A model generated the notes under the pieces. It was given only the letters and a program-made list of their open reading frames with translations, was not told where the DNA came from and did not search any database. DNA of 64,000 nucleotides from Myxococcota bacterium (GTDB lineage: Bacteria > Myxococcota_A > SURF-8). Every line of letters starts with the position of its first letter. Position 1 is the first letter of the stretch. This document shows, piece by piece, positions 33,137 to 45,703 of this stretch. The position numbers and the translations under genes are program-made. The stretch covers positions 4,928,001-4,992,000 of the forward strand of contig OZ223209.1 of NCBI GenBank assembly GCA_965140415.1, given 5' to 3'.

Positions 33137-33829
33137 TCATGAAATTCGCTGTTCGGAATCCGCCTTGCTCGTCACCGCCATGCGCGCCAGTTCGTCGGCG
33201 CGTTCGTTCTCCGGTACGCCCGCATGACCGGCAACCTTGATAAACTCCACGGCGGCATAACGCCCGATCTCATTGCGGATCTGTTCGATCAGTTCCGGGT
33301 TCTTCTTGGCTTTCCAACCCTTGACCAGCACCCCGATGGAGTAGGTGGAATCCGTGTAAATCTGCACCGGGCGCGAGGGTGTGCGGATGGTTTGCAAAGC
33401 CACCAGAATCGCCGTTAACTCCGCAACATTATTGGTGGATTTCCCCAGGTATTTCGAAATTTCCAAGCGATGTTCCCCGGACAGCAACACGACCCCCAAT
33501 CCGGCAGGACCGGGATTCCCCGAGCAGGCGCCGTCGGTCCAGGCTTGAATCGGCTCGCCTTTGGCTTTGGTCGCTCGTTTGGAACTGACCGGTTTTGGAG
33601 TAGCAGAGGTCTTCGATTCTTTCTTCTGCGCCGGTTTGGGAGCTGGCTTTGCCTTGGCGGGCGGAGGATCGTCCAGCGGACGCACGTTGGTCCGCGACGC
33701 CTTGTAGCTGCGGGTGTCGTCCGGTTTATAACGAATCTCCACCTTGCCGTTTTCCTCGATGATCCGGCCTTGCTCGTCGACGTGTACGTAAGCTTTGTTG
33801 GTTTTAAACCACATCCGTTCCCAGGGCAT
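33137..33829 (-). CDS. rnhA: Ribonuclease HI with N-terminal extension
   Basis: WTDGACSGNPGPAG, TNNVAEL, YTDS, KVAGHAG…NERADELA; start coupled to the MlaD stop. Confidence 0.92.
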   Translation of the reverse strand: MPWERMWFKTNKAYVHVDEQGRIIEENGKVEIRYKPDDTRSYKASRTNVRPLDDPPPAKAKPAPKPAQKKESKTSATPKPVSSKRATKAKGEPIQAWTDGACSGNPGPAGLGVVLLSGEHRLEISKYLGKSTNNVAELTAILVALQTIRTPSRPVQIYTDSTYSIGVLVKGWKAKKNPELIEQIRNEIGRYAAVEFIKVAGHAGVPENERADELARMAVTSKADSEQRIS

Positions 33830-34800
33830 CAGCGTGTTCCGTTTTGTTGCAGTTCTCGAATTCGTTTCATTCCGGAAGCCGGAGCAACCAGTCCGGCGGT
33901 ACCACCCTGCTGCTGGCCGAGTTGCCGGATCAGGCGCTCGTCGAAGAGCAGTCCCAGTTCTATGGCGTATTCCAGCCCGGAGAGCAGTCGCGCCTGCTTT
34001 TCGGCGGTCCATTTCAGCGCGGTGGCCAGCTGCTTGATCTGCTCTGAAAGCTGCCGCAGTTTTTCCTCGCTTTGCGCGTGGCGTTGGGGAAGTGCCTGTA
34101 ACAGCGGAGCGGCGGCTTGCAATCGTTCATTCAATCGTTGCAGGCTTTCCAGATCCAGTTCCGGCACTTGCTCTTCCAATGAGGCGAAACGTTCGAGAAT
34201 CGGAGGGATACGCTTCGCCTGATTGCCCATGCGCTGTACACCATCGAAAGCCGTGCGGGCCTGCGGCGCAAGATCGCGCACCTGCTCCCAATACGGAGAT
34301 AGTTGCTTCGCCAGTTGTACCGCTCTGGAAATCTGCCCGGCAACGTCAACCGCCTTCGGTCCCAGCTTTTCGGCGTGGTGGCTGTATTCTTCCAGGCGTA
34401 CCGGCAGCGGTCCCGCTTGAATGCGGCTGCCTACACTCAACTCTGCCGCATGCTCGTCACCCGGCTCCACTTCGATAAAGCGTCCGCCTAAAAAGGTCTT
34501 GTCGCGCAGCCGCGCACTGGCACCCTCGTGCAAGCGCAGTTTCGAAGCCAGCGCCAACGTGATGTCCGCCCGGTCGTGCGCCAGCGTGATCTCTTTTACG
34601 TACCCCCGAATCGCGCCTTTTACCCGCACCGCGTTTCCAACTTTCAACCCGGTGACATCCGCGAATTGGACGTGGTATTCAATGACTCTTTTCCCAGCAC
34701 CTGCACCGACGAACAACGCCGCCATTACACACACGGCCAGCCCGGCGAGCATCAACAGCCCGGTCAACAGGTTGGCTCGATTGGTAGGCGAAGCGTTCAT
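33829..34800 (-). CDS. MlaD/MCE family protein
   Basis: N-terminal TM; FADVTGLKVGNAVRVKG…G; LGGRFIEVEPG; helical C-terminus. Confidence 0.85.
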   Translation of the reverse strand: MNASPTNRANLLTGLLMLAGLAVCVMAALFVGAGAGKRVIEYHVQFADVTGLKVGNAVRVKGAIRGYVKEITLAHDRADITLALASKLRLHEGASARLRDKTFLGGRFIEVEPGDEHAAELSVGSRIQAGPLPVRLEEYSHHAEKLGPKAVDVAGQISRAVQLAKQLSPYWEQVRDLAPQARTAFDGVQRMGNQAKRIPPILERFASLEEQVPELDLESLQRLNERLQAAAPLLQALPQRHAQSEEKLRQLSEQIKQLATALKWTAEKQARLLSGLEYAIELGLLFDERLIRQLGQQQGGTAGLVAPASGMKRIRELQQNGTR

Positions 34801-34878
34801 ACGATCGTCGTTGCCTTCTGGTTAAAAAAAGATGTCCGAAACGAACCGGGCGACTCGATGAGCCGCCCGGTGTAACAC

Positions 34879-36102
34879 TTACTTGGTCTTCTTTTTCACG
34901 TCACCCGTGATCGGTGGCTTTACCGAAAGATTCTTTTGCCTGAGATGCGGCTTTTTCATGTCCGCTTCGCCTTTCCCTCTAGTGGTGCGGCTGAGCAGAT
35001 ACACCGGCAAAGTCAGTGTCGGTTGATCTTTGTTATCGGTCGCGATAATCACGTTGGAGGTAAAGCGTCCCGATTCCAGTTCCGCCTTCTCGTTCAATGA
35101 AACCGTCAAGCGATACGACGTACCCTTTTTAATCGGGTCGACTTTAATCAGTACCCGACCGCTGGGATCTTGGGCGTTTTTGATTTTAAACTTAACGGTA
35201 TTGGATTGTACCGTCGCCGTCGTTTCCCTGCGGTCTTCCTCGTCGATGCGCAGGGTCAAACGCCGAGGAACGACCTGGATTTCACCTTCCACCGCGACGT
35301 TGAAACGCAGGGTCAATTCCTTGACCTTGGGATTGTTGGTCTTCATCGAAACACGACCGGTCTGGTTGCCGATCTTGGTTCCTTTGACTGTAACTTCAAC
35401 GTAGGTCTGCATCACGCCTTTGTCGTCTTTCTCTTTTACGATTTTGGCGCTGGCACCTTCCAGGCTGACTTCCAAATTGGAAAGCTTGAGTCCCTTGGGA
35501 TTTTTAGCAAGGACTTTCATCCGCTGGGTCAGGCTTTCCCCTTTTTTAATGTTGGGGAAACGCAGGTAGCTGCGCTCGAATCCCAACTCCACGACTACAT
35601 TGGCGTTGACTTTCAATCGCACTTTTGGATTGACCGGATCGCTGGATTCCACGGTTACGCTCTTACCCAGTTTGCCATTACGTCCAGCTGTACTTACCGA
35701 AACCTTGATTTTTCCTTCCCCACCCGGGGGAACGTCCGCGTCGGTAATAACCGCGGCAGTGCAGCCTCACGAGCCTTTGGCACGTTCGATGTGCAGCACT
35801 CCTTTTCCGACGTTTTTGAACGTGAAAATATGTTCGGCCTTGTCACCCTGGTTGACATCGCCCAACTCGACTTCCGTTTTGGCGAATTCGATTTTCGGAG
35901 CGTTGGCCGGATCGACGGGAGCCTTGTCTTTTGCTTTCGTCTTGTCGATCGCGCTGCGTTGCGCTTTCTCGACGACCGGCTTCGCCGCCTTATCGGCGCT
36001 TTGCTCGGATTTGGAACAACCCGCGACACTGGCCATCACCAGAAACGCGGTTAGAACAGCCAGCACAAGCACCGGCGTTCGCCATCTCATTCGATCTTTC
36101 AT
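34879..36102 (-). CDS. DUF1573 (Ig-like) domain lipoprotein, probable selenoprotein with in-frame TGA at 35767-35769
   Basis: Track ORFs 35767..36114 and 34879..35652 are in one frame: FTFKNVGKGVLHIERAKGS-(TGA)-GCTAAVITDADVPPGGEGKIKV…KSVTVESSDP matches DUF1573 (F.F.N.G..L.I….SCGCT…IPPG…K.I.V.SNDP). Lipobox VAGC. Confidence 0.85.
35736..35756 (-). promoter_or_regulatory. Candidate SECIS hairpin
   Basis: CCGCGGTTATTACCGACGCGG begins after a 10-nt spacer 3' of the TGA; a second hairpin TTCCCC-CGGGT-GGGGAA follows at 35716-35732. Confidence 0.5.
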
Positions 36103-36388
36103 GTTTCTCTCCATTGTCGGTAATCGGTCAATCCATCAGTTAAACGAGCGCAGATCCTATCACAACCACATTCTTCTTTGCAAATTGACCGTACCAAAAA
36201 ACCTATAAAGGGGGTGTGATTTATCACAGCACGTGGTTGATTTTATCGATAGCGATCAAGAGTATCACAAGCTATTTCGGATGGTTCAAGGCTCCTGTCT
36301 TGAACCATTCGGTTTCCAGTTGGGGTGCCAGTCCCGACTACAAAGTCAAACGCTTAGAACAGGACGGGAGCCCTGCTCCAACATAAGG

Positions 36389-36483
36389 ATATTGCTGACC
36401 TATTTGATTTCGGGGTGGCGCGGGCCAAGCCGCAGGCTTGCCCGTGTTCGAGAATCACATAAGCAAGCTTCGTTTCGCTTTGC
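36389..36483 (+). repeat. REP-like element, family A (extended copy)
   Basis: Core GGGTGGCGCGGGCCAAGCCGCAGGCTTGCCCGTG at 36413-36446, with flanks shared with the copies at 45917 and 50808. Confidence 0.85.
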
Positions 36484-38157
36484 TTAGCCTTTCACCAGCT
36501 TCCGATAGCGCTTGCGGCGGTTTTTGGAGGCGTCGCCCAATTCACGCTTGCGCCAATCTTCATAATCGCGGTAGTTGCCGGTGAACCAGCGCACCTCGCC
36601 GTTTCCTTCAAACACAAGCAGGTGGGTGCAGATACGATCCAGGAAAAAGCGATCATGGCTGATCACCATCGCGCAACCTGCGAAGTCTAAAATGGCATCT
36701 TCCAGCAGACGAAGCGTGTTGACATCCAGATCGTTGGTCGGCTCATCCAATAGCAGCACGTTGCCACCGACTTTCAGTGTCTTGGCCAAATGGAAACGGT
36801 TGCGCTCGCCACCGGAGAGGTCGTCCGCGTCTTTCTGCTGATCCGAACCGCGAAATCCGAACCAGGAAAGATACTGCCGCACCTTCACGGCGCGCTTGCC
36901 CAGCATGACTTCATCGGAATCACCGGCTAAGGCTTTAACCAGTTGGCCGCCGCCTTTCAAGGATTCACGTCCCTGATCGACGTAGGCAAACTCTACGCTG
37001 GAACCGATTTCAATCGATCCCGCATCCGGGGTTTCCTGTTGAACGATCAAACGGAAAAGCGTAGTTTTCCCGGTACCGTTGGGACCGACCAGTCCGACTA
37101 CCGCACCTTTGGGCACCTTGAATTCCAGGTTTTCAAACAGAGTGGTTTCGAAACCTTTCGAAACACCATCAAACGTGATGACCTGCTCGCCGAGTTGCGG
37201 TCCCGGCGCGATCTGAATCACGGTGCCATCGCCCTCGCGCAAGGCGCTTTCCTGCGCAATCAGCTTTTCGTATTCGATCAGGCGTGTGCGGGCCAACTCG
37301 CTGCGATTCTTGTTGCTCATGTGAATCCAGGCCAGCTCGCGTTCGATGGCCCGGCGTTTCGTGCTGTTTTTCTTTTCGGATTCCGCCAACTTGGAAAGCT
37401 TCTGCTCCAGCCAGGAGGAGTAGTTCCCCTCCCAGGGAATACCGTGGCCGCTGTCCAGTTCAAGAATCCACTTGGTGATGTTATCCAGGAAGTAGCGGTC
37501 GTGGGTTACGACGATCACGCAGCCGGGATATTCGCGCAACTGCTCTTCCAGCCAGTCGACCGTTTCGGCATCCAGATGGTTGGTCGGTTCGTCCAATAGC
37601 AGCAGGCTCGGTTTTTCCAATAATGCTTTAGCCAGCGCCACCCGGCGACGTTCGCCGCCAGAAAGCGTCTCGATGATGCGATCGTCTTCAGGCAAACACA
37701 AGGCATCGGAAGCCACGGAAATCGTCTGGTCCAAGTCCCAGGCGTCGCGGGCGTCCAATTCGTCCTGCAACTCGCCCATGCGGTCCATGGCCTGCTGCAT
37801 CTCTTCGTCGCTCAGCTCTTCGCCCATTTTGGCGGCGCACTCGTTGTATTCATCCAGCAGTTCCTTGGTTTCGGCAAAAGCCGATTCCAGGGTTTCATAG
37901 ACGGTCAGTTCTTCATCCAGATCCGGTTCCTGAAGTACGATCCCCGCCGTATGCCCGGAAGTAAGTTCCGCATGCCCTTGGAAATCCGTATCCAAACCGG
38001 CCATGATTTTCAGTAAGGTCGATTTACCCGCGCCGTTTTCACCTACGATGCCGATCTTCGCGCCGGGGAAGAAACTGAGGTTGATGTTTTTCAACACCTG
38101 TTTCTGACCGTAATACTTGTTGAGACCCTGCATATGAAAAACGTATTGCTTATCCAT
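36484..38157 (-). CDS. ettA: Energy-dependent translational throttle protein EttA (ABC-F)
   Basis: NLSFFPGAKIG…NGAGKST; two ABC domains; GIPWEGNYSSWLEQK linker. Confidence 0.93.
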   Translation of the reverse strand: MDKQYVFHMQGLNKYYGQKQVLKNINLSFFPGAKIGIVGENGAGKSTLLKIMAGLDTDFQGHAELTSGHTAGIVLQEPDLDEELTVYETLESAFAETKELLDEYNECAAKMGEELSDEEMQQAMDRMGELQDELDARDAWDLDQTISVASDALCLPEDDRIIETLSGGERRRVALAKALLEKPSLLLLDEPTNHLDAETVDWLEEQLREYPGCVIVVTHDRYFLDNITKWILELDSGHGIPWEGNYSSWLEQKLSKLAESEKKNSTKRRAIERELAWIHMSNKNRSELARTRLIEYEKLIAQESALREGDGTVIQIAPGPQLGEQVITFDGVSKGFETTLFENLEFKVPKGAVVGLVGPNGTGKTTLFRLIVQQETPDAGSIEIGSSVEFAYVDQGRESLKGGGQLVKALAGDSDEVMLGKRAVKVRQYLSWFGFRGSDQQKDADDLSGGERNRFHLAKTLKVGGNVLLLDEPTNDLDVNTLRLLEDAILDFAGCAMVISHDRFFLDRICTHLLVFEGNGEVRWFTGNYRDYEDWRKRELGDASKNRRKRYRKLVKG

Positions 38158-40625: not shown

Positions 40626-43600
40626 TTACATGACGTCCTCTACCACAAAATCGGTCGGAGCGCAATTGCTTTTGCTCTCCGGTTCGTAGTACGGAGATGC
40701 TTCGCAGGAACCGGACGTTCCATCCATCGGATAACGCGCCAATAATTGATACGTGACTTCGAAAGTCTGTTGCGCGTCGATGCGTTCGACGTACAGAATC
40801 AATTGACGCCCGGCTTTCTCGAAACGCTGCAACACCGTATCTTGAACCTGCTGATTGAGCATGTCGGTCATCAAATCGAAGCCCGGCGGCAGGCCAAGAT
40901 CCACCAGCACCATCAAGACGTTGGAATCGGTTACGTTGCTGATACTGGCGGTGGCGGTGACGATATCGTTTACTGCCAGCGTGGTTTTGTCGTATTCGAC
41001 GTCGATCGTAATCGGTCCACCCTGCTGGTAGGGATCGCCTTCGCTGGGCAGCCAGTAACTGGATACAACGCTGTACATCACGTTGCCTTCGCCGCTGACG
41101 ACGAGATTGACTTCATTTTCGCCCGCCTGCAAGTACTCGGTCAGAACGACCTGCTGCAAGACATCGGAGTTATCGGCGTCGATCGTCAACACCGCCGCCT
41201 GCGAACCGTTGGCCATTACGGTGACGGTTGCATTGGCGTTCTCATCGCCGCCTTGCATACTTAATGTAGCAATAAAGAAGCGCAGCGCCTGGATCGTGCC
41301 CGCCGTGGTGGACCATTCGCCAAAGGAGCCCTTCTGCGCGACCAGCCAATCGGTGATGCCGCCAACCAGATCGACGTGAGAATTGGCTTTGATCAGCGCC
41401 TGCCCGATCAGCGCGGTGGTTTCCATTCCAGCCGAGCCGCCGGTGCCGTACATTTCTGTCTGCTGTTCCTGATCCCAATGAACCTTGCCGTCTTCATCCT
41501 CGATACGTAAATCGTAAAGCGCCTGCGTAACCGGGGCGATGGCGGAATCGTTGGGGTTGATGGTAGCCAGCATCATGGCGATCAGACCCAGCGAGTAGTT
41601 ATCATCCATCGCTTCAGAGACATTCGCCTTTACCCAGCTTGCACCCTTGGCGACTTCCGGACCATCGTAGCCGCTTTCGGCCAACGCCCAGGTGATATAT
41701 GCCGTGGTGCGGACCTTGCTGCTGGTGAAGTTATTGACTGCGCCTTCGTGAATGCCGCCCGCATCGAAATCGTAGGAGCCGTCGCTGTTCTGCAATCCAG
41801 CCAGCCAATCCTGGGTGCGTGCGATCATGTCGTCGTCGACATTGTGAACCTTTGCCATATCGGAGAATTCAAGCAGGCCGTAGGCGGTAAGCACGCGATG
41901 TGCGGGCGGAGAACCGAACCATTCGAAGCCGCCGCCGTCTACTTCGTAGCTGAGCAGACGTTGATAGCCCTGGCTGATCTTATCGCGTGCGTTCAATTCG
42001 ATTTCAGGCGTAATCTGGCCGGTCAGGATCATGTAATCGAGCACCAGCACGTTCGGATAGGTGCTGCTCGACGTCTGCTCGAAGCAGCCGGACGGCATTT
42101 GCAGCAGGCTGTCCAAACCTTCGATCACCTGGGAGAGCAGACCCGGATAAACCTTGACCCACAACTTGCTGGCGTCGGCAATGGCGTCTGCCGGGATCGT
42201 AGCCGTAACCGATTTGTCGCCGTCCAAACGACCGCTGACGGCGTTACGCACTTCCAGGCCATCGGGAATGACTTCGATGCTGCGGCGAATGGCATCGCTC
42301 ATCTGATCGCCGATGCCGTTTACGGTCAATTCGTGCCAACCGACTTCCACCACTTTCACCGGGAAGTAAATACCGGTAACGGAATTGGGACCGACCGTGA
42401 TCTGGCGCGAATTGCCTTCCAGATATTCGATCCAGCTTTCTTCGCTGGCTTCCAGCGAAATGGTCTGCGAGGTGCTCAGGTAGTTGTAAATCGCGATCGG
42501 CACATGCACGATATCGTTCTGCGTCAACGTTGCGGGGAAGTCGATGTCGATAAAGAAATCCTGGTATACGATGACGTTGCCGACATTGCTGCCGATCTGA
42601 CCGCTGCGGGTATTGGCCAGCGCCGTCATGCGCCAACTCGTGATGGAATCGGCCATGGTAAAGGAAACTTCCGCTTCACCACCGGCATCGGTAACGACCG
42701 CCGGGTTGACGTACAGCGTTTCCGGGAAGTAGGAACGCACGCGCGGACCATCGCCTTCGCCTTCCGTATCCTTGCCATTCTGATCTTCACCCTCGGAAGA
42801 GGGGTCCGCCGGTTGTTCGTTCCATTCCTCGCCATCGGCCATCGGCGGTTCTTCGCCACCGGCCAGCGCGCCGTCGTCGTCGCGCCAGTCATCCTGGCCA
42901 TTGGTATGACCGTACACGGATTCGGTTACGGTGATGTCGTCGTCGGTGCCGGTTTTTTCGTCCATGCCATTACTGACCAGTTCCAGGGTGCTGTCGCTAT
43001 AGCTCAATTTGTAGGCGTGACCCCAGGGATCGTAGAGCGGATCTTCGGATTCGTTGCGCTGCTCGATCCAGGCTTGAACGCCCTGCGTACCGCTGATGAA
43101 ACCGGCTTCCATCAGCCATTGGATATGCTCCGTAATTTCCGTCAGATCCTTTTCAACCGCTTCGGTGGCAGTGGCTTTGGCCACGGTATCCACTTCGGCG
43201 AAGGTATTGACGTTCATGCCGTAGGCGGCATCGGTTCCGGCTGAAGCCAAAAACGCACCTGCATAGGCTTCACGCTCGTCGGCTTGCTCCTGATCCTCCG
43301 GCTCCGGATCGAGCAGGTCCGCCGCATCGAAGCCATGAATTTCATAGCGCGGCTGCATCAGTTCTTCTTCCAGCGCGAAGTAAACCTTTTCCATACCGGG
43401 TTTCATGTCTTGCAGAGCGAAGACAGCTTCGTCCACCACCTGCACACCGATCACCGACTGCACGCCGTTATTGTCCGCATCTTTGACGCGGAAGGAAACG
43501 GAGGCTTCCTCGGCGGGAGCAAAGGTATCTTTGCTGGGCAGAATTTCCACGGTGAGCGAATTGCCCAGTTCGACGAAGACCAGCCGCCGGTCGCGGATGA

Positions 43601-45575
43601 TTTCACCCGCCGCACCCAGATAGTAGGCCATCAATTCGATGGAACCGTTCAGGGTGGCGTCGATGTCCAGCGTGTAGGTGCTGGCGCCGTCGGTCAACGA
43701 CAGCGTCGTCATCAGCATGGTCTGGCCATCTTTAATGACATCCAGATAAACGCGGTCGGGCAGATGCGCCGCTTCCCAGCCGTCGTTGGTGGCCAGCACC
43801 GAAATCTGAATGGAGTCGCCCACTTTGTAGATCGAACGATCCGTGCGCAGCATGACGTATTCGCGCGCAGTTTCGGCGGAGAAAGAGAACTCGCTTTGCG
43901 CGGTGTCGCCATTAGGCAGGCTGGCCGCCAAATTAAACGACAGGCTCTCCTCTTCCGGCGTCAAAGTGAAGGTGGTCAAGCCCCACAGACCGGTATTTAC
44001 ATCTTCGATGGTTCCGGTATTGCCGTCTTCGCCATGTGTGTAGCCGACATCGATGGTGGCGTTAACAGGCTTGCCGAAAGGATCGGTAGCCATCAGATAG
44101 AAGGTGTTTTCCACGCCCGGCACCAAGGAGCCGCTTTCGGGAACGACCGCCAGCAAAATGGCGTTTTCCACCACCATCACCGTGGCGGATTTGATCTGCT
44201 GATGACCGGCAGTATCGATGACTGCGATTTCCAAGAAGGCATACGCCTGATCCTGATCCAGTTCCTGCGCGACGAAGTAAGTCGGCAGTTCCAGGTCGAA
44301 TTCGAATCCGCCGTCGGCATCCAGCACGCCGGTAATGGTGGCGAAGGTCGTCAGTTCGACGTCGAATTTCTGCGCGGTGATTTCCACCGAACCGCCTGCA
44401 ACCGGCTGACCGAAGAAGTAGTCCGCCTGGACGGAGCCATGCAGGTTGTTGCCGGGGCGATAATAGGTTTTATCGCTGGTAAAGCCAACGCTGAATTTCG
44501 GCAGCGCGTAGCGTTCGACGGTGACGGTCTTCTCGCTGGTGAATTCGCCGACCTTGGCTTCGATTTTGAAGCTGCCTTCATTCAAGATGGTCGCCAGTTT
44601 GAATTCCGTGGAAGCCACGCCGTATTCGCTGGTTTCCAGTTGATCCTTGAACACCTTGTTGCCCTTGGCATCGAAAACGGAGAAGGTCACCGGCAAACCG
44701 GCTTCGGGAGCCAACGCCGGGCGCTTTAAGCAGAGACCGCGAATGTGAATGGTCTGTCCCGGCTGGTACATCGGCTTATCGGTGGTCAACAGGATCTTGG
44801 CTTCACGCGTAATCGCCAACGGGCTCATGGCCTGTTCCTGCTGCTCGCCGCCGGGCAGATCGATCAGGGTTTTGAGTTCCTTGTCGCCGAATTCTCCGGC
44901 AGGCAACTCGATTTTCACATCCGCCATACCGAATTCGTCGGTGGTGCCGGAACCGACCTGCACATCCAGGCCGTCTTCGTCGGTCAAAAAGAAAGCGGCC
45001 TGTGCACCTTGAACCGGCAGACCGCTATTGGGCTCGGAAACGATCAACTTATAAAAGGACTGGCTGCTCTCGAAAACACTGTCGGAGCCGAGTAGCTGAG
45101 CCTGAACGTAACGATACATGGCGTGCAAGGAGCGCGAACCCCAGATTTCGGGTTGCTTGTCTACCTGCGCCAGGTTGAATGTGACGATGTACTTGGCTTT
45201 GTCATCCGTGCCGAAATCCTCGGGTAGATCGGCCAAGGTGACTTCGCTGTCGGTAGTGGCATCTGAAAGATCGATGCGCACCGTTCGTTCGGTGACTTTC
45301 ACCGCATCCAGATCGGTCAGCCCGACCGTCAAATCCACCGAGCGATCGGCAGCTTTTTCCTGATGGATCGGAATCACCACCGAAAGGCCGTCGGAGGTCA
45401 AGCGCGCGGAGAATTCGCTTTCCAATAACTGGAAGGTCGCGCTCTCCAGATTGTCGTTGGTGTTGGTGTTAAAGTCGTCGTCCGGCGAGTCGCTGGAACT
45501 GCTACAGCCCAGCGCGCCCAGAACGAAAACCAGAACCGCGAAAATCCAAATCGGGTAGGTTTTAAATGGTTGCAT
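40626..45575 (-). CDS. Alpha-2-macroglobulin family thioester lipoprotein
   Basis: Lipobox ALGC; TDKPMYQPGQ, VERYALPKF, VVDEAV, RVRSYFPET, ADSITSW, thioester MPSGCFEQ, DLGLPPGF; AGGAG RBS before 45575. Confidence 0.93.
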   Translation of the reverse strand: MQPFKTYPIWIFAVLVFVLGALGCSSSSDSPDDDFNTNTNDNLESATFQLLESEFSARLTSDGLSVVIPIHQEKAADRSVDLTVGLTDLDAVKVTERTVRIDLSDATTDSEVTLADLPEDFGTDDKAKYIVTFNLAQVDKQPEIWGSRSLHAMYRYVQAQLLGSDSVFESSQSFYKLIVSEPNSGLPVQGAQAAFFLTDEDGLDVQVGSGTTDEFGMADVKIELPAGEFGDKELKTLIDLPGGEQQEQAMSPLAITREAKILLTTDKPMYQPGQTIHIRGLCLKRPALAPEAGLPVTFSVFDAKGNKVFKDQLETSEYGVASTEFKLATILNEGSFKIEAKVGEFTSEKTVTVERYALPKFSVGFTSDKTYYRPGNNLHGSVQADYFFGQPVAGGSVEITAQKFDVELTTFATITGVLDADGGFEFDLELPTYFVAQELDQDQAYAFLEIAVIDTAGHQQIKSATVMVVENAILLAVVPESGSLVPGVENTFYLMATDPFGKPVNATIDVGYTHGEDGNTGTIEDVNTGLWGLTTFTLTPEEESLSFNLAASLPNGDTAQSEFSFSAETAREYVMLRTDRSIYKVGDSIQISVLATNDGWEAAHLPDRVYLDVIKDGQTMLMTTLSLTDGASTYTLDIDATLNGSIELMAYYLGAAGEIIRDRRLVFVELGNSLTVEILPSKDTFAPAEEASVSFRVKDADNNGVQSVIGVQVVDEAVFALQDMKPGMEKVYFALEEELMQPRYEIHGFDAADLLDPEPEDQEQADEREAYAGAFLASAGTDAAYGMNVNTFAEVDTVAKATATEAVEKDLTEITEHIQWLMEAGFISGTQGVQAWIEQRNESEDPLYDPWGHAYKLSYSDSTLELVSNGMDEKTGTDDDITVTESVYGHTNGQDDWRDDDGALAGGEEPPMADGEEWNEQPADPSSEGEDQNGKDTEGEGDGPRVRSYFPETLYVNPAVVTDAGGEAEVSFTMADSITSWRMTALANTRSGQIGSNVGNVIVYQDFFIDIDFPATLTQNDIVHVPIAIYNYLSTSQTISLEASEESWIEYLEGNSRQITVGPNSVTGIYFPVKVVEVGWHELTVNGIGDQMSDAIRRSIEVIPDGLEVRNAVSGRLDGDKSVTATIPADAIADASKLWVKVYPGLLSQVIEGLDSLLQMPSGCFEQTSSSTYPNVLVLDYMILTGQITPEIELNARDKISQGYQRLLSYEVDGGGFEWFGSPPAHRVLTAYGLLEFSDMAKVHNVDDDMIARTQDWLAGLQNSDGSYDFDAGGIHEGAVNNFTSSKVRTTAYITWALAESGYDGPEVAKGASWVKANVSEAMDDNYSLGLIAMMLATINPNDSAIAPVTQALYDLRIEDEDGKVHWDQEQQTEMYGTGGSAGMETTALIGQALIKANSHVDLVGGITDWLVAQKGSFGEWSTTAGTIQALRFFIATLSMQGGDENANATVTVMANGSQAAVLTIDADNSDVLQQVVLTEYLQAGENEVNLVVSGEGNVMYSVVSSYWLPSEGDPYQQGGPITIDVEYDKTTLAVNDIVTATASISNVTDSNVLMVLVDLGLPPGFDLMTDMLNQQVQDTVLQRFEKAGRQLILYVERIDAQQTFEVTYQLLARYPMDGTSGSCEASPYYEPESKSNCAPTDFVVEDVM

Positions 45576-45686
45576 GATTTCTCTCCTGTCGATCGTTCCG
45601 AATATACTTTCGTTACCGTTTTCCTGTCGAAAACCGGGTACTTCTAAAAGTGACAACTTGTAATAAAGCGCCAACCTATATGATGC

Positions 45687-45703
45687 AGCAAGTTCCATAC
45701 CAA
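45687..45703 (-). promoter_or_regulatory. Putative sigma-54 promoter of the alpha-2-macroglobulin gene
   Basis: Minus strand TTGGTATGGAACTTGCT. Confidence 0.65.

Follow-up and report, generated by a model that had tools for sequence, protein, structure and literature searches.

Selenoproteins of the DUF1573 kind are already on record. The family was introduced as OS_HP2 by Zhang and Gladyshev in 2007 (PMC1976440), and a "DUF1573 domain-containing protein" with the motif UGC appears in tables of both PMC9312934 and PMC13188914; these sources bear out the statement, in a preliminary description of the present locus, that Sec forms of this family had been seen before. DUF1573 is also mentioned in PMC10682907. 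No function is assigned to the DUF1573 selenoprotein in the accessible parts of the DUF1573 literature found, and the 2007 figure legend covers SECIS elements for five of the six new families, OS_HP2 being omitted (PMC1976440). For bacterial SECIS elements, the bSECIS model places 16-37 nt between the UGA and the apical loop (PMC13188914), and for the SelB complex of M. thermoacetica and for E. coli fdhF the loop G lies about 20 nt from the UGA (PMC4605307). In the 2026 BSepDB paper, a canonical SECIS is given for 87.4% of the bacterial selenoprotein entries, with the rest suggesting uncharacterised features, and a 2026 review states that distinct SECIS classes must exist (PMC13188914). No distal or two-hairpin bacterial SECIS was found in the literature at the level of titles and the opening parts of abstracts, a coverage reaching little of the subscription journals, supplements and figures, and no two-hairpin SECIS appears in the accessible text of PMC4605307, PMC8659212, PMC11431864 and PMC13326102 or in section 5 of PMC13188914. 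No DUF1573 row was found in one file of the BSepDB supplement.

In the present study, a gene of this kind was analysed in a Myxococcota genome, within a window of 64,000 nucleotides (the whole stretch of DNA that was analysed). Its in-frame TGA very likely represents selenocysteine (Sec112) in a predicted exported DUF1573 protein. The Sec112 protein resembles the OS_HP2/DUF1573 selenoprotein in its PF07610 domain, which scores above the gathering score, in its U-G-C motif, in the alignment of the TGA with a conserved Cys, and in the alternation of Sec and Cys among homologues, whereas two additional Ig domains and a lipobox set it apart. Against the NCBIfam model NF041425 the protein reaches 86.7 bits, below the cut-off of 100 that is passed by three relatives (L031, L098 and L109, 102-109 bits), and it was therefore assigned to the broader DUF1573-UGC kind, as a borderline case of the NCBIfam subfamily. 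Herein we propose that Sec is inserted into a DUF1573/OS_HP2 lipoprotein of three Ig domains by means of a two-hairpin SECIS whose loop lies 40 nt after the UGA, a model that, taken as a whole, we hold to be fairly probable. The RNA signal weighs more than the selenoprotein, by which a family known from prediction since 2007 gains one more member.

The in-frame TGA and its decoding

The gene and its parts are as follows, in window coordinates.

36102..34879, minus strand: whole coding sequence, 407 codons, with the TGA read as Sec112
36107..36112, minus strand: Shine-Dalgarno-like GGAGAG before the ATG at 36102, from the sequence
36016..36102, minus strand: predicted lipoprotein signal peptide, residues 1-29, lipobox V-A-G-C29, assigned by eye and by a simple pattern
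35596..35892, minus strand: DUF1573 (PF07610) Ig-like domain 1, residues 71-169, with U-G-C, from the profile match and the model
35769-35767, minus strand: in-frame TGA, predicted Sec112, from translation, relatives, contigs and the association with selA
35763..35761, minus strand: Cys114, partner residue of U-G-C, invariant in 84/84 aligned rows
35284..35589, minus strand: predicted Ig-like domain 2 without cysteine, spanning about residues 172-273, from the model with bounds estimated from the strand list
34987..35283, minus strand: predicted Ig-like domain 3, likewise without cysteine, spanning about residues 274-372 and succeeded by a basic tail, from the model and a weak PF07610 match, bounds estimated

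The start at 36102 was picked from the possible ATG codons (the others being 36114 and 36090) because GGAGAG sits closely upstream. The two open reading frames from which the preliminary description had started, 36114..35767 and 35652..34879, are in frame and divided by one TGA, with 114 stop-free bases between them, and translation shows a single internal stop, the TGA in K-G-S-[TGA]-G-C-T-A-A. The read-through product comprises 407 codons, the length that had been estimated. Residues 71-169 align to the complete PF07610 profile (1-98 of 98) at 96.3 bits, against a gathering score of 26.1, and the upstream piece alone reaches only profile positions 1-41 at 29.3 bits. By both translation and alignment, the TGA coincides with the first Cys of the S-C-G-C-T motif of DUF1573, as had been claimed. 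Gene callers were expected to split such a gene, and the public protein collection does hold the 257-aa 3' piece as a protein of its own (P0002). In three runs of a single study, one contig per run covers the codon and no other letter occurs there; one of the three runs is possibly the source of the assembly.

Several further results bear on the decoding of this codon. First, the sel genes that had been proposed as a check are present in the genome, namely a selC-selA-selB cluster and, in addition, two selD genes. One selD forms the C-terminal half of a 732-aa protein (L010:325-2523; G000:C1 about 1065700-1067900, G000 being the genome under study) and has Cys, not Sec, at the active site; the N-terminal half resembles a NifS-type cysteine desulfurase. 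Second, the suggested alternation of TGA and Cys was observed, since the aligned codon is TGA in eight relatives of 28-44% identity, these being the full-length orthologs with TGA among 61 genomes, and C-x-C occurs in 118 of the 120 protein homologues listed, the other two being N-terminally cut pieces. Third, a PF07610 match at E<=1e-8 was found in 43 of 401 genomes of the phylum and an in-frame TGA within the domain in 20 of the 401, the genome under study included, with the codon position verified in all of the 20 except G145. selA was detected in 17 of 19 TGA-form relatives compared with 0 of 10 Cys-form genomes, and tRNA-Sec in 17 of 19 compared with 1 of 10 (the Cys-form match and that of G002 are both weak), where the ten Cys-form genomes are not ten independent cases because nine of them belong to one family. 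In a tree of 130 domains, built by a quick search and with many forks unresolved, the Cys forms are nested among the Sec forms. A search of named genomes for related loci returned seven distant ones.

If the TGA were a true stop, the gene would be a pseudogene, a split gene or the product of an assembly error, a reading that could draw on the 3' piece stored under its own accession and on two TGA-form genomes, G001 and G002, in which selA and selB were not found. However, G001 contains a TGA peroxiredoxin gene with an ordinary SECIS, and its sel cluster is therefore probably unassembled, which points to a gap and is no proof of one. Moreover, termination at the TGA would leave a single domain truncated at position 41 of the 98 in the profile, the contigs agree on TGA, and the same codon recurs in 98 non-redundant genes of about 22-44% identity whose frames are open downstream. 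A true stop is thus highly improbable, and we regard the decoding of the TGA as Sec as close to certain.

At least five further predicted selenoprotein genes were found in the genome by a script followed by an NCBIfam check (L209-L213), each with an in-frame TGA. The PrxU, FdhA and SelW-like genes score above the NCBIfam cut-offs, and the HesB-like and SelL-related genes below.

G000:C1 5462897, minus strand: PrxU
G000:C1 5909792, minus strand: FdhA
G000:C1 4669790, minus strand: HesB-like gene, SECIS ambiguous
G000:C1 1849491, minus strand: SelW-like gene
G000:C1 3407269, minus strand: SelL-related lipoprotein

The SECIS loops of the Prx, FdhA, SelW-like and SelL-related genes lie 17-21 nt after the UGA. 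A de novo Sec candidate at G000:3372936 was dropped, as it matched no NCBIfam family.

Two hairpins downstream of the TGA

Two hairpins were located in the coding region behind the TGA, numbered from the UGA.

35736..35759, minus strand: hairpin 1 (+8..+31), predicted spacer, conserved in folding but not in sequence and with no G kept in the loop, from folding
35716..35732, minus strand: hairpin 2 (+35..+51), UUCCCC-CGGGU-GGGGAA, loop +41..+45, predicted SelB-binding loop, from motif conservation

The preliminary description had read a hairpin close behind the TGA as the signature of Sec decoding. A hairpin is indeed present 10 nt from the U of the UGA, but its loop, UAUU, is without the G of the bSECIS consensus loop; the conserved G-loop hairpin is the second one, and the assignment of the first as the signature SECIS was not upheld. 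Under a bSECIS rule of a 3-9 nt loop, a 4-16 bp stem, a G in the first two loop positions and an energy of at most -7.5 kcal/mol, hairpin 2 qualifies with the loop CGGGU, 6 bp, -8.6 kcal/mol and a G within the first two positions. Like the consensus bSECIS, hairpin 2 lies in the coding region 3' of the UGA and has a 6-bp stem and a 5-nt loop with G-G at loop positions 2-3. Unlike the consensus, it has its loop 40 nt after the UGA, outside the range of 16-37 nt, and is preceded by a separate hairpin; in addition, its loop C-G-G-G-N differs from the G-G-U-C of the Prx and FdhA elements of the same genome. No Rfam match of note was obtained over 34500-36600.

The conservation of hairpin 2 was analysed in genome loci and in 119 loci returned by a metagenome scan whose pattern fixed the peptide alone (U-G-C-T-A...x-P-P-G). 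From the 182 records mapped, 21 were dropped because of a weak score, the lack of U/C-x-C or truncation, and the remainder collapsed to 98 Sec and 17 Cys non-redundant genes. Positions +35..+50 read TTCCCCCGGGNGGGGA in 83 of the 98 Sec genes compared with none of the 17 Cys genes, the former not being a family-wide frequency because the scan demanded the P-P-G peptide. Among genes encoding the peptide [IVL]PPGG[ED], the motif was present in 83/88 Sec genes and 0/4 Cys genes, a comparison in which the Cys controls number only four and the genes are kin; codon usage would yield 0.56 of 88. Identity at third positions is 0.92-0.96 at +36, 39, 42, 48 and 51, compared with 0.28-0.65 at the other 14. 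Four of these five fixed positions represent a pairing choice in the 6-bp stem and the fifth is the loop G, which is kept at its synonymous site in 91 of 98 Sec genes, and the 5' arm is under selection as is the 3' arm. A blind 17-mer search of the 401 genomes recovered the motif in 20, once in each, including a single occurrence in the genome under study, compared with one for the reversed control, and in 17 of the 20 a TGA stands exactly 37 nt upstream of the 17-mer. These results support well the conclusion that hairpin 2 is a selected RNA element tied to the TGA and, to a moderate degree, the prediction that it is the SelB site.

Other explanations for the motif were considered. A DNA palindrome recognised by a regulator was ruled out, since each genome with the motif has a single copy, which in nearly all cases lies 37 nt behind a TGA, and internal restart at the Shine-Dalgarno-like arm of hairpin 2 was rejected in view of the lack of a conserved start codon downstream. 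Two antisense open reading frames on the plus strand (35170-36054 and 35600-36208), which are open in several orthologs as well, gave no Pfam match and were taken as shadows; they cannot account for hairpin 2 because third positions elsewhere vary.

Hairpin 2 is almost without covariation (a double change in 2 of 96 rows) because the peptide locks the sequence. Applied to all 96 rows, RNAalifold produced no consensus structure, and from the 83 motif carriers it recovered hairpin 2 alone. In the gene at 36102..34879 itself, hairpin 1 is unremarkable (z -1.13, with 26 of 200 shuffles as good), and 13% of synonymous recodings are as stable for hairpin 1, 23% for hairpin 2 and 4% for both together, the pair thus surpassing 96% of recodings.

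Across the family, hairpin 1 shows selected folding. In 80 of the 83 motif carriers, the stretch +7..+34 surpassed synonymous recodings in stability (-11.6 vs -6.9 kcal/mol); the corresponding numbers were 6 of 17 for Cys genes (-5.3 vs -5.3 kcal/mol) and 44 of 83 for a control stretch upstream of the UGA. In its commonest register, 88 double-change cells were counted against 41 +/- 5 in shuffles and 37-52 in slid controls, with no excess in the number of pairs having double changes (5 vs 5.3 in shuffles). The register shifts from gene to gene, but in 71 of the 83 genes hairpin 1 closes on its 3' side within +31..+33, for a folding window that ended at +34. The G pattern is present in the lowest-energy loop of hairpin 1 in 11 of the 86 genes having hairpin 2 compared with 8 of 12 lacking it (p 1.5e-4), and under a looser rule in 37/86 compared with 9/12 (p 0.06), both tests being inflated by kinship.

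An alternative is that Sec is inserted with hairpin 1 as the ordinary SECIS, hairpin 2 being an accessory that causes a pause, enhances readthrough or protects the mRNA after a stalled UGA. In favour of this alternative, hairpin 1 is found at the customary distance from the UGA, is selected in Sec genes only, and allows a G-containing loop to be drawn in the 37 genes that satisfy the loose rule, and the 3' arm of hairpin 2, GGGGAAGG, is Shine-Dalgarno-like. However, hairpin 1 has no conserved loop base and rarely forms the G pattern at lowest energy where hairpin 2 is present. The accessory role of hairpin 2 is in turn opposed by the retention of its loop G at a synonymous site, by its agreement with the consensus loop rule and by selection on the 5' arm as well as on the 3' arm. 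We therefore consider this alternative unlikely, and hairpin 1 is probably not the SelB-binding loop.

For the preferred reading, in which SelB recognises hairpin 2, the following steps are proposed. With the UGA in the A site, hairpin 1 would fold just outside the mRNA channel and take up about 20 nt. The G-loop of hairpin 2 would then be about 20 nt of chain from the codon, which is the spacing of the ordinary SECIS loops of the genome, and SelB would bind the G-containing loop of hairpin 2. In other words, hairpin 1 would shorten the path and so place the loop of hairpin 2 where SelB expects it. We judge these three steps together to be rather probable. With slightly less assurance, we suggest that the DUF1573-UGC genes represent a distinct class of bacterial SECIS, composed of a sequence-free spacer hairpin and an invariant distal G-loop hairpin, with branches of the family switching between this arrangement and an ordinary single hairpin. 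The DUF1573 two-hairpin element offers a concrete and testable SECIS design, for which nature provides about 100 variants as well as Cys forms as controls. If the proposal is true, the search rules for SECIS would widen past 37 nt, the switching of branches would illustrate the relocation of a SECIS where the residues directly following Sec do not permit coding for the loop, and a route to Sec in recombinant proteins would be available in which the 10 codons after the UGA are nearly free in sequence.

Several related loci may be described here. The TGA-form genes of G001 (G001:C2:1776071-1777195) and G002 (G002:C83:5471-6574) carry the hairpin 2 motif. Two Sec genes (L087:553-612 and L090:1466-1525) have, by eye, a different distal hairpin at the same place, with the loop GGU and a bulged U; behind a G-less first hairpin, it is possibly an independent version of the two-hairpin design. 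A gene at L082:1335-2468 encodes two DUF1573 domains, the first with C-G-C and the second with U-G-C, and has no clear SECIS of either type. The genome under study also encodes a Cys-form paralog (L021; G000:C1:2180872-2181156, minus strand) with S-C-G-C-T, two Ig domains and neither hairpin, which is a natural control within the genome.

Predicted architecture and possible role of the U-G-C motif

The protein is predicted to be exported and lipid-anchored, as the lipobox V-A-G-C29 suggests, and a simple pattern recognised the basic N-region, the hydrophobic stretch and the lipobox ending in Cys; a crude pattern fits 35 of the 75 Sec relatives whose N-terminus is complete. A structure model built from 84 aligned rows has a pLDDT of 95 and three beta-sandwiches, in line with the Ig-like fold that had been proposed, and puts U-G-C into a short loop that connects two domain 1 strands. 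The best fold matches are VesB, Hydin, CEP192, MSP, PapD-type Ig domains and P. gingivalis 2QSV, the top one reaching Z 11.7 with an rmsd of 2.1 over 97 residues (VesB/Hydin/PapD-type Ig domains), and a PF22544 match scored 61.6 bits. Searches of the PDB by sequence gave weak matches only. The model thus predicts three PapD/ASH-like Ig domains on a lipid anchor, all three sharing their fold with the PapD-like/ASH (ASPM-SPD-2-Hydin) Ig domains, the VesB Ig domain and 2QSV (Z 9-11.7). In contrast to the Sec112 protein, 2QSV is without the C-G-C motif at the aligned place, and no redox role is given for any of these matches; a shared fold by itself shows no function. Cysteine positions are conserved only at U112 and C114, and His91 is present in 73 of 84 rows. 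No longer fused forms scored among 95 candidates, which is weak evidence.

With respect to function, we propose that, outside the membrane, the U-G-C loop would cycle between selenol/thiol and selenylsulfide and would exchange disulfides with client proteins of the envelope, which the PapD/ASH-like domains would hold, two steps to which we jointly give an even chance. Such thiol-disulfide exchange is favoured because of redox precedents for C-x-C, a thioredoxin-like fusion and the absence of copper families from the neighbourhoods scanned. The C-x-C motifs of CsgC, YphP and a CGC peptide are reported to have potentials in the isomerase range (PMC3173608), MauE uses C-G-C (bioRxiv 2026.03.05.709764), and C-x-C peptides are able to replace PDI in yeast (bioRxiv 2026.01.27.701630). 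The fusion was observed in a Cys homologue (P0086) that carries a thioredoxin/AhpC domain. As is predicted for the Sec112 protein, the redox-active Ig proteins CsgC and nDsbD combine a periplasmic Ig-like beta-sandwich with C-x-C or a related cysteine pair. However, the CsgC motif joins the BC loop to strand C, whereas the Sec112 motif follows the presumed strand C (by element order only), and neither CsgC nor nDsbD is among the 50 fold matches listed; no membership is claimed.

A second possibility is that the U-G-C loop, perhaps with a contribution of His91, serves in the envelope as a binding site for a soft metal or metalloid (Cu, Hg, As). The frequent retention of His91 is consistent with this view, as is the occurrence of ArsR genes next to 3 of 36 metagenome loci, in whose neighbourhoods 84 of 85 extracted ORFs were scanned. 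DsbD_2, found beside 2 of the 36, is compatible with either reading, and no copper-handling Pfam family was detected in the 84 neighbour ORFs of these 36 loci or in 36 ORFs from 14 relatives. We regard metal binding as the less likely rival of thiol-disulfide exchange. One branch (L064, L074, L106, L109 and L113) adjoins ArsR, ABC/FtsX and DsbD_2 genes in an arrangement resembling a metal(loid)-stress operon.

Alternatively, the protein might be a structural or adhesive Ig scaffold in which U-C is merely a stabilising bond. The fold matches are scaffolds and chaperones (Hydin, CEP192, S-layer, PapD), and domains 2 and 3 are without cysteine. However, selenocysteine is generally kept at chemically active cysteine positions, and C-x-C rings are strained and redox-active in the precedents described (PMC3173608). 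A purely structural bond thus appears improbable, and envelope thiol-disulfide exchange by U-G-C stays the favoured, still tentative, role.

Two further observations concern fusions and partners. A Sec-DUF1573 protein of Methylomirabilota (L057:377-1225) is fused to a cytochrome c domain and has an ordinary single SECIS. The genome under study encodes a MauE homologue with C-G-C (G000:C1:4014260-4014640, minus strand), a possible membrane oxidant for envelope disulfides; MauE was found in 24 of 30 genomes with an ortholog compared with 144 of 371 others, a co-occurrence that is confounded by kinship and was not taken as support for MauE as the oxidising partner.

Neighbouring genes

No conserved operon partner was found in the neighbourhoods compared (relatives and metagenome loci), and no client was indicated by them. 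Downstream of the gene, the window contains an mlaD-like gene and RNase HI at 33137-34800 (minus strand); mlaD follows the gene in 3 of 15 genomes, all of one family and including G001 and G002, and RNase H also follows in G001. A predicted lipoprotein of 1690 aa with a C-x-E-Q motif is encoded at 40626-45698 (minus strand) of the window, and it resembles a bacterial alpha-2-macroglobulin, with C-x-E-Q as the putative thioester motif.
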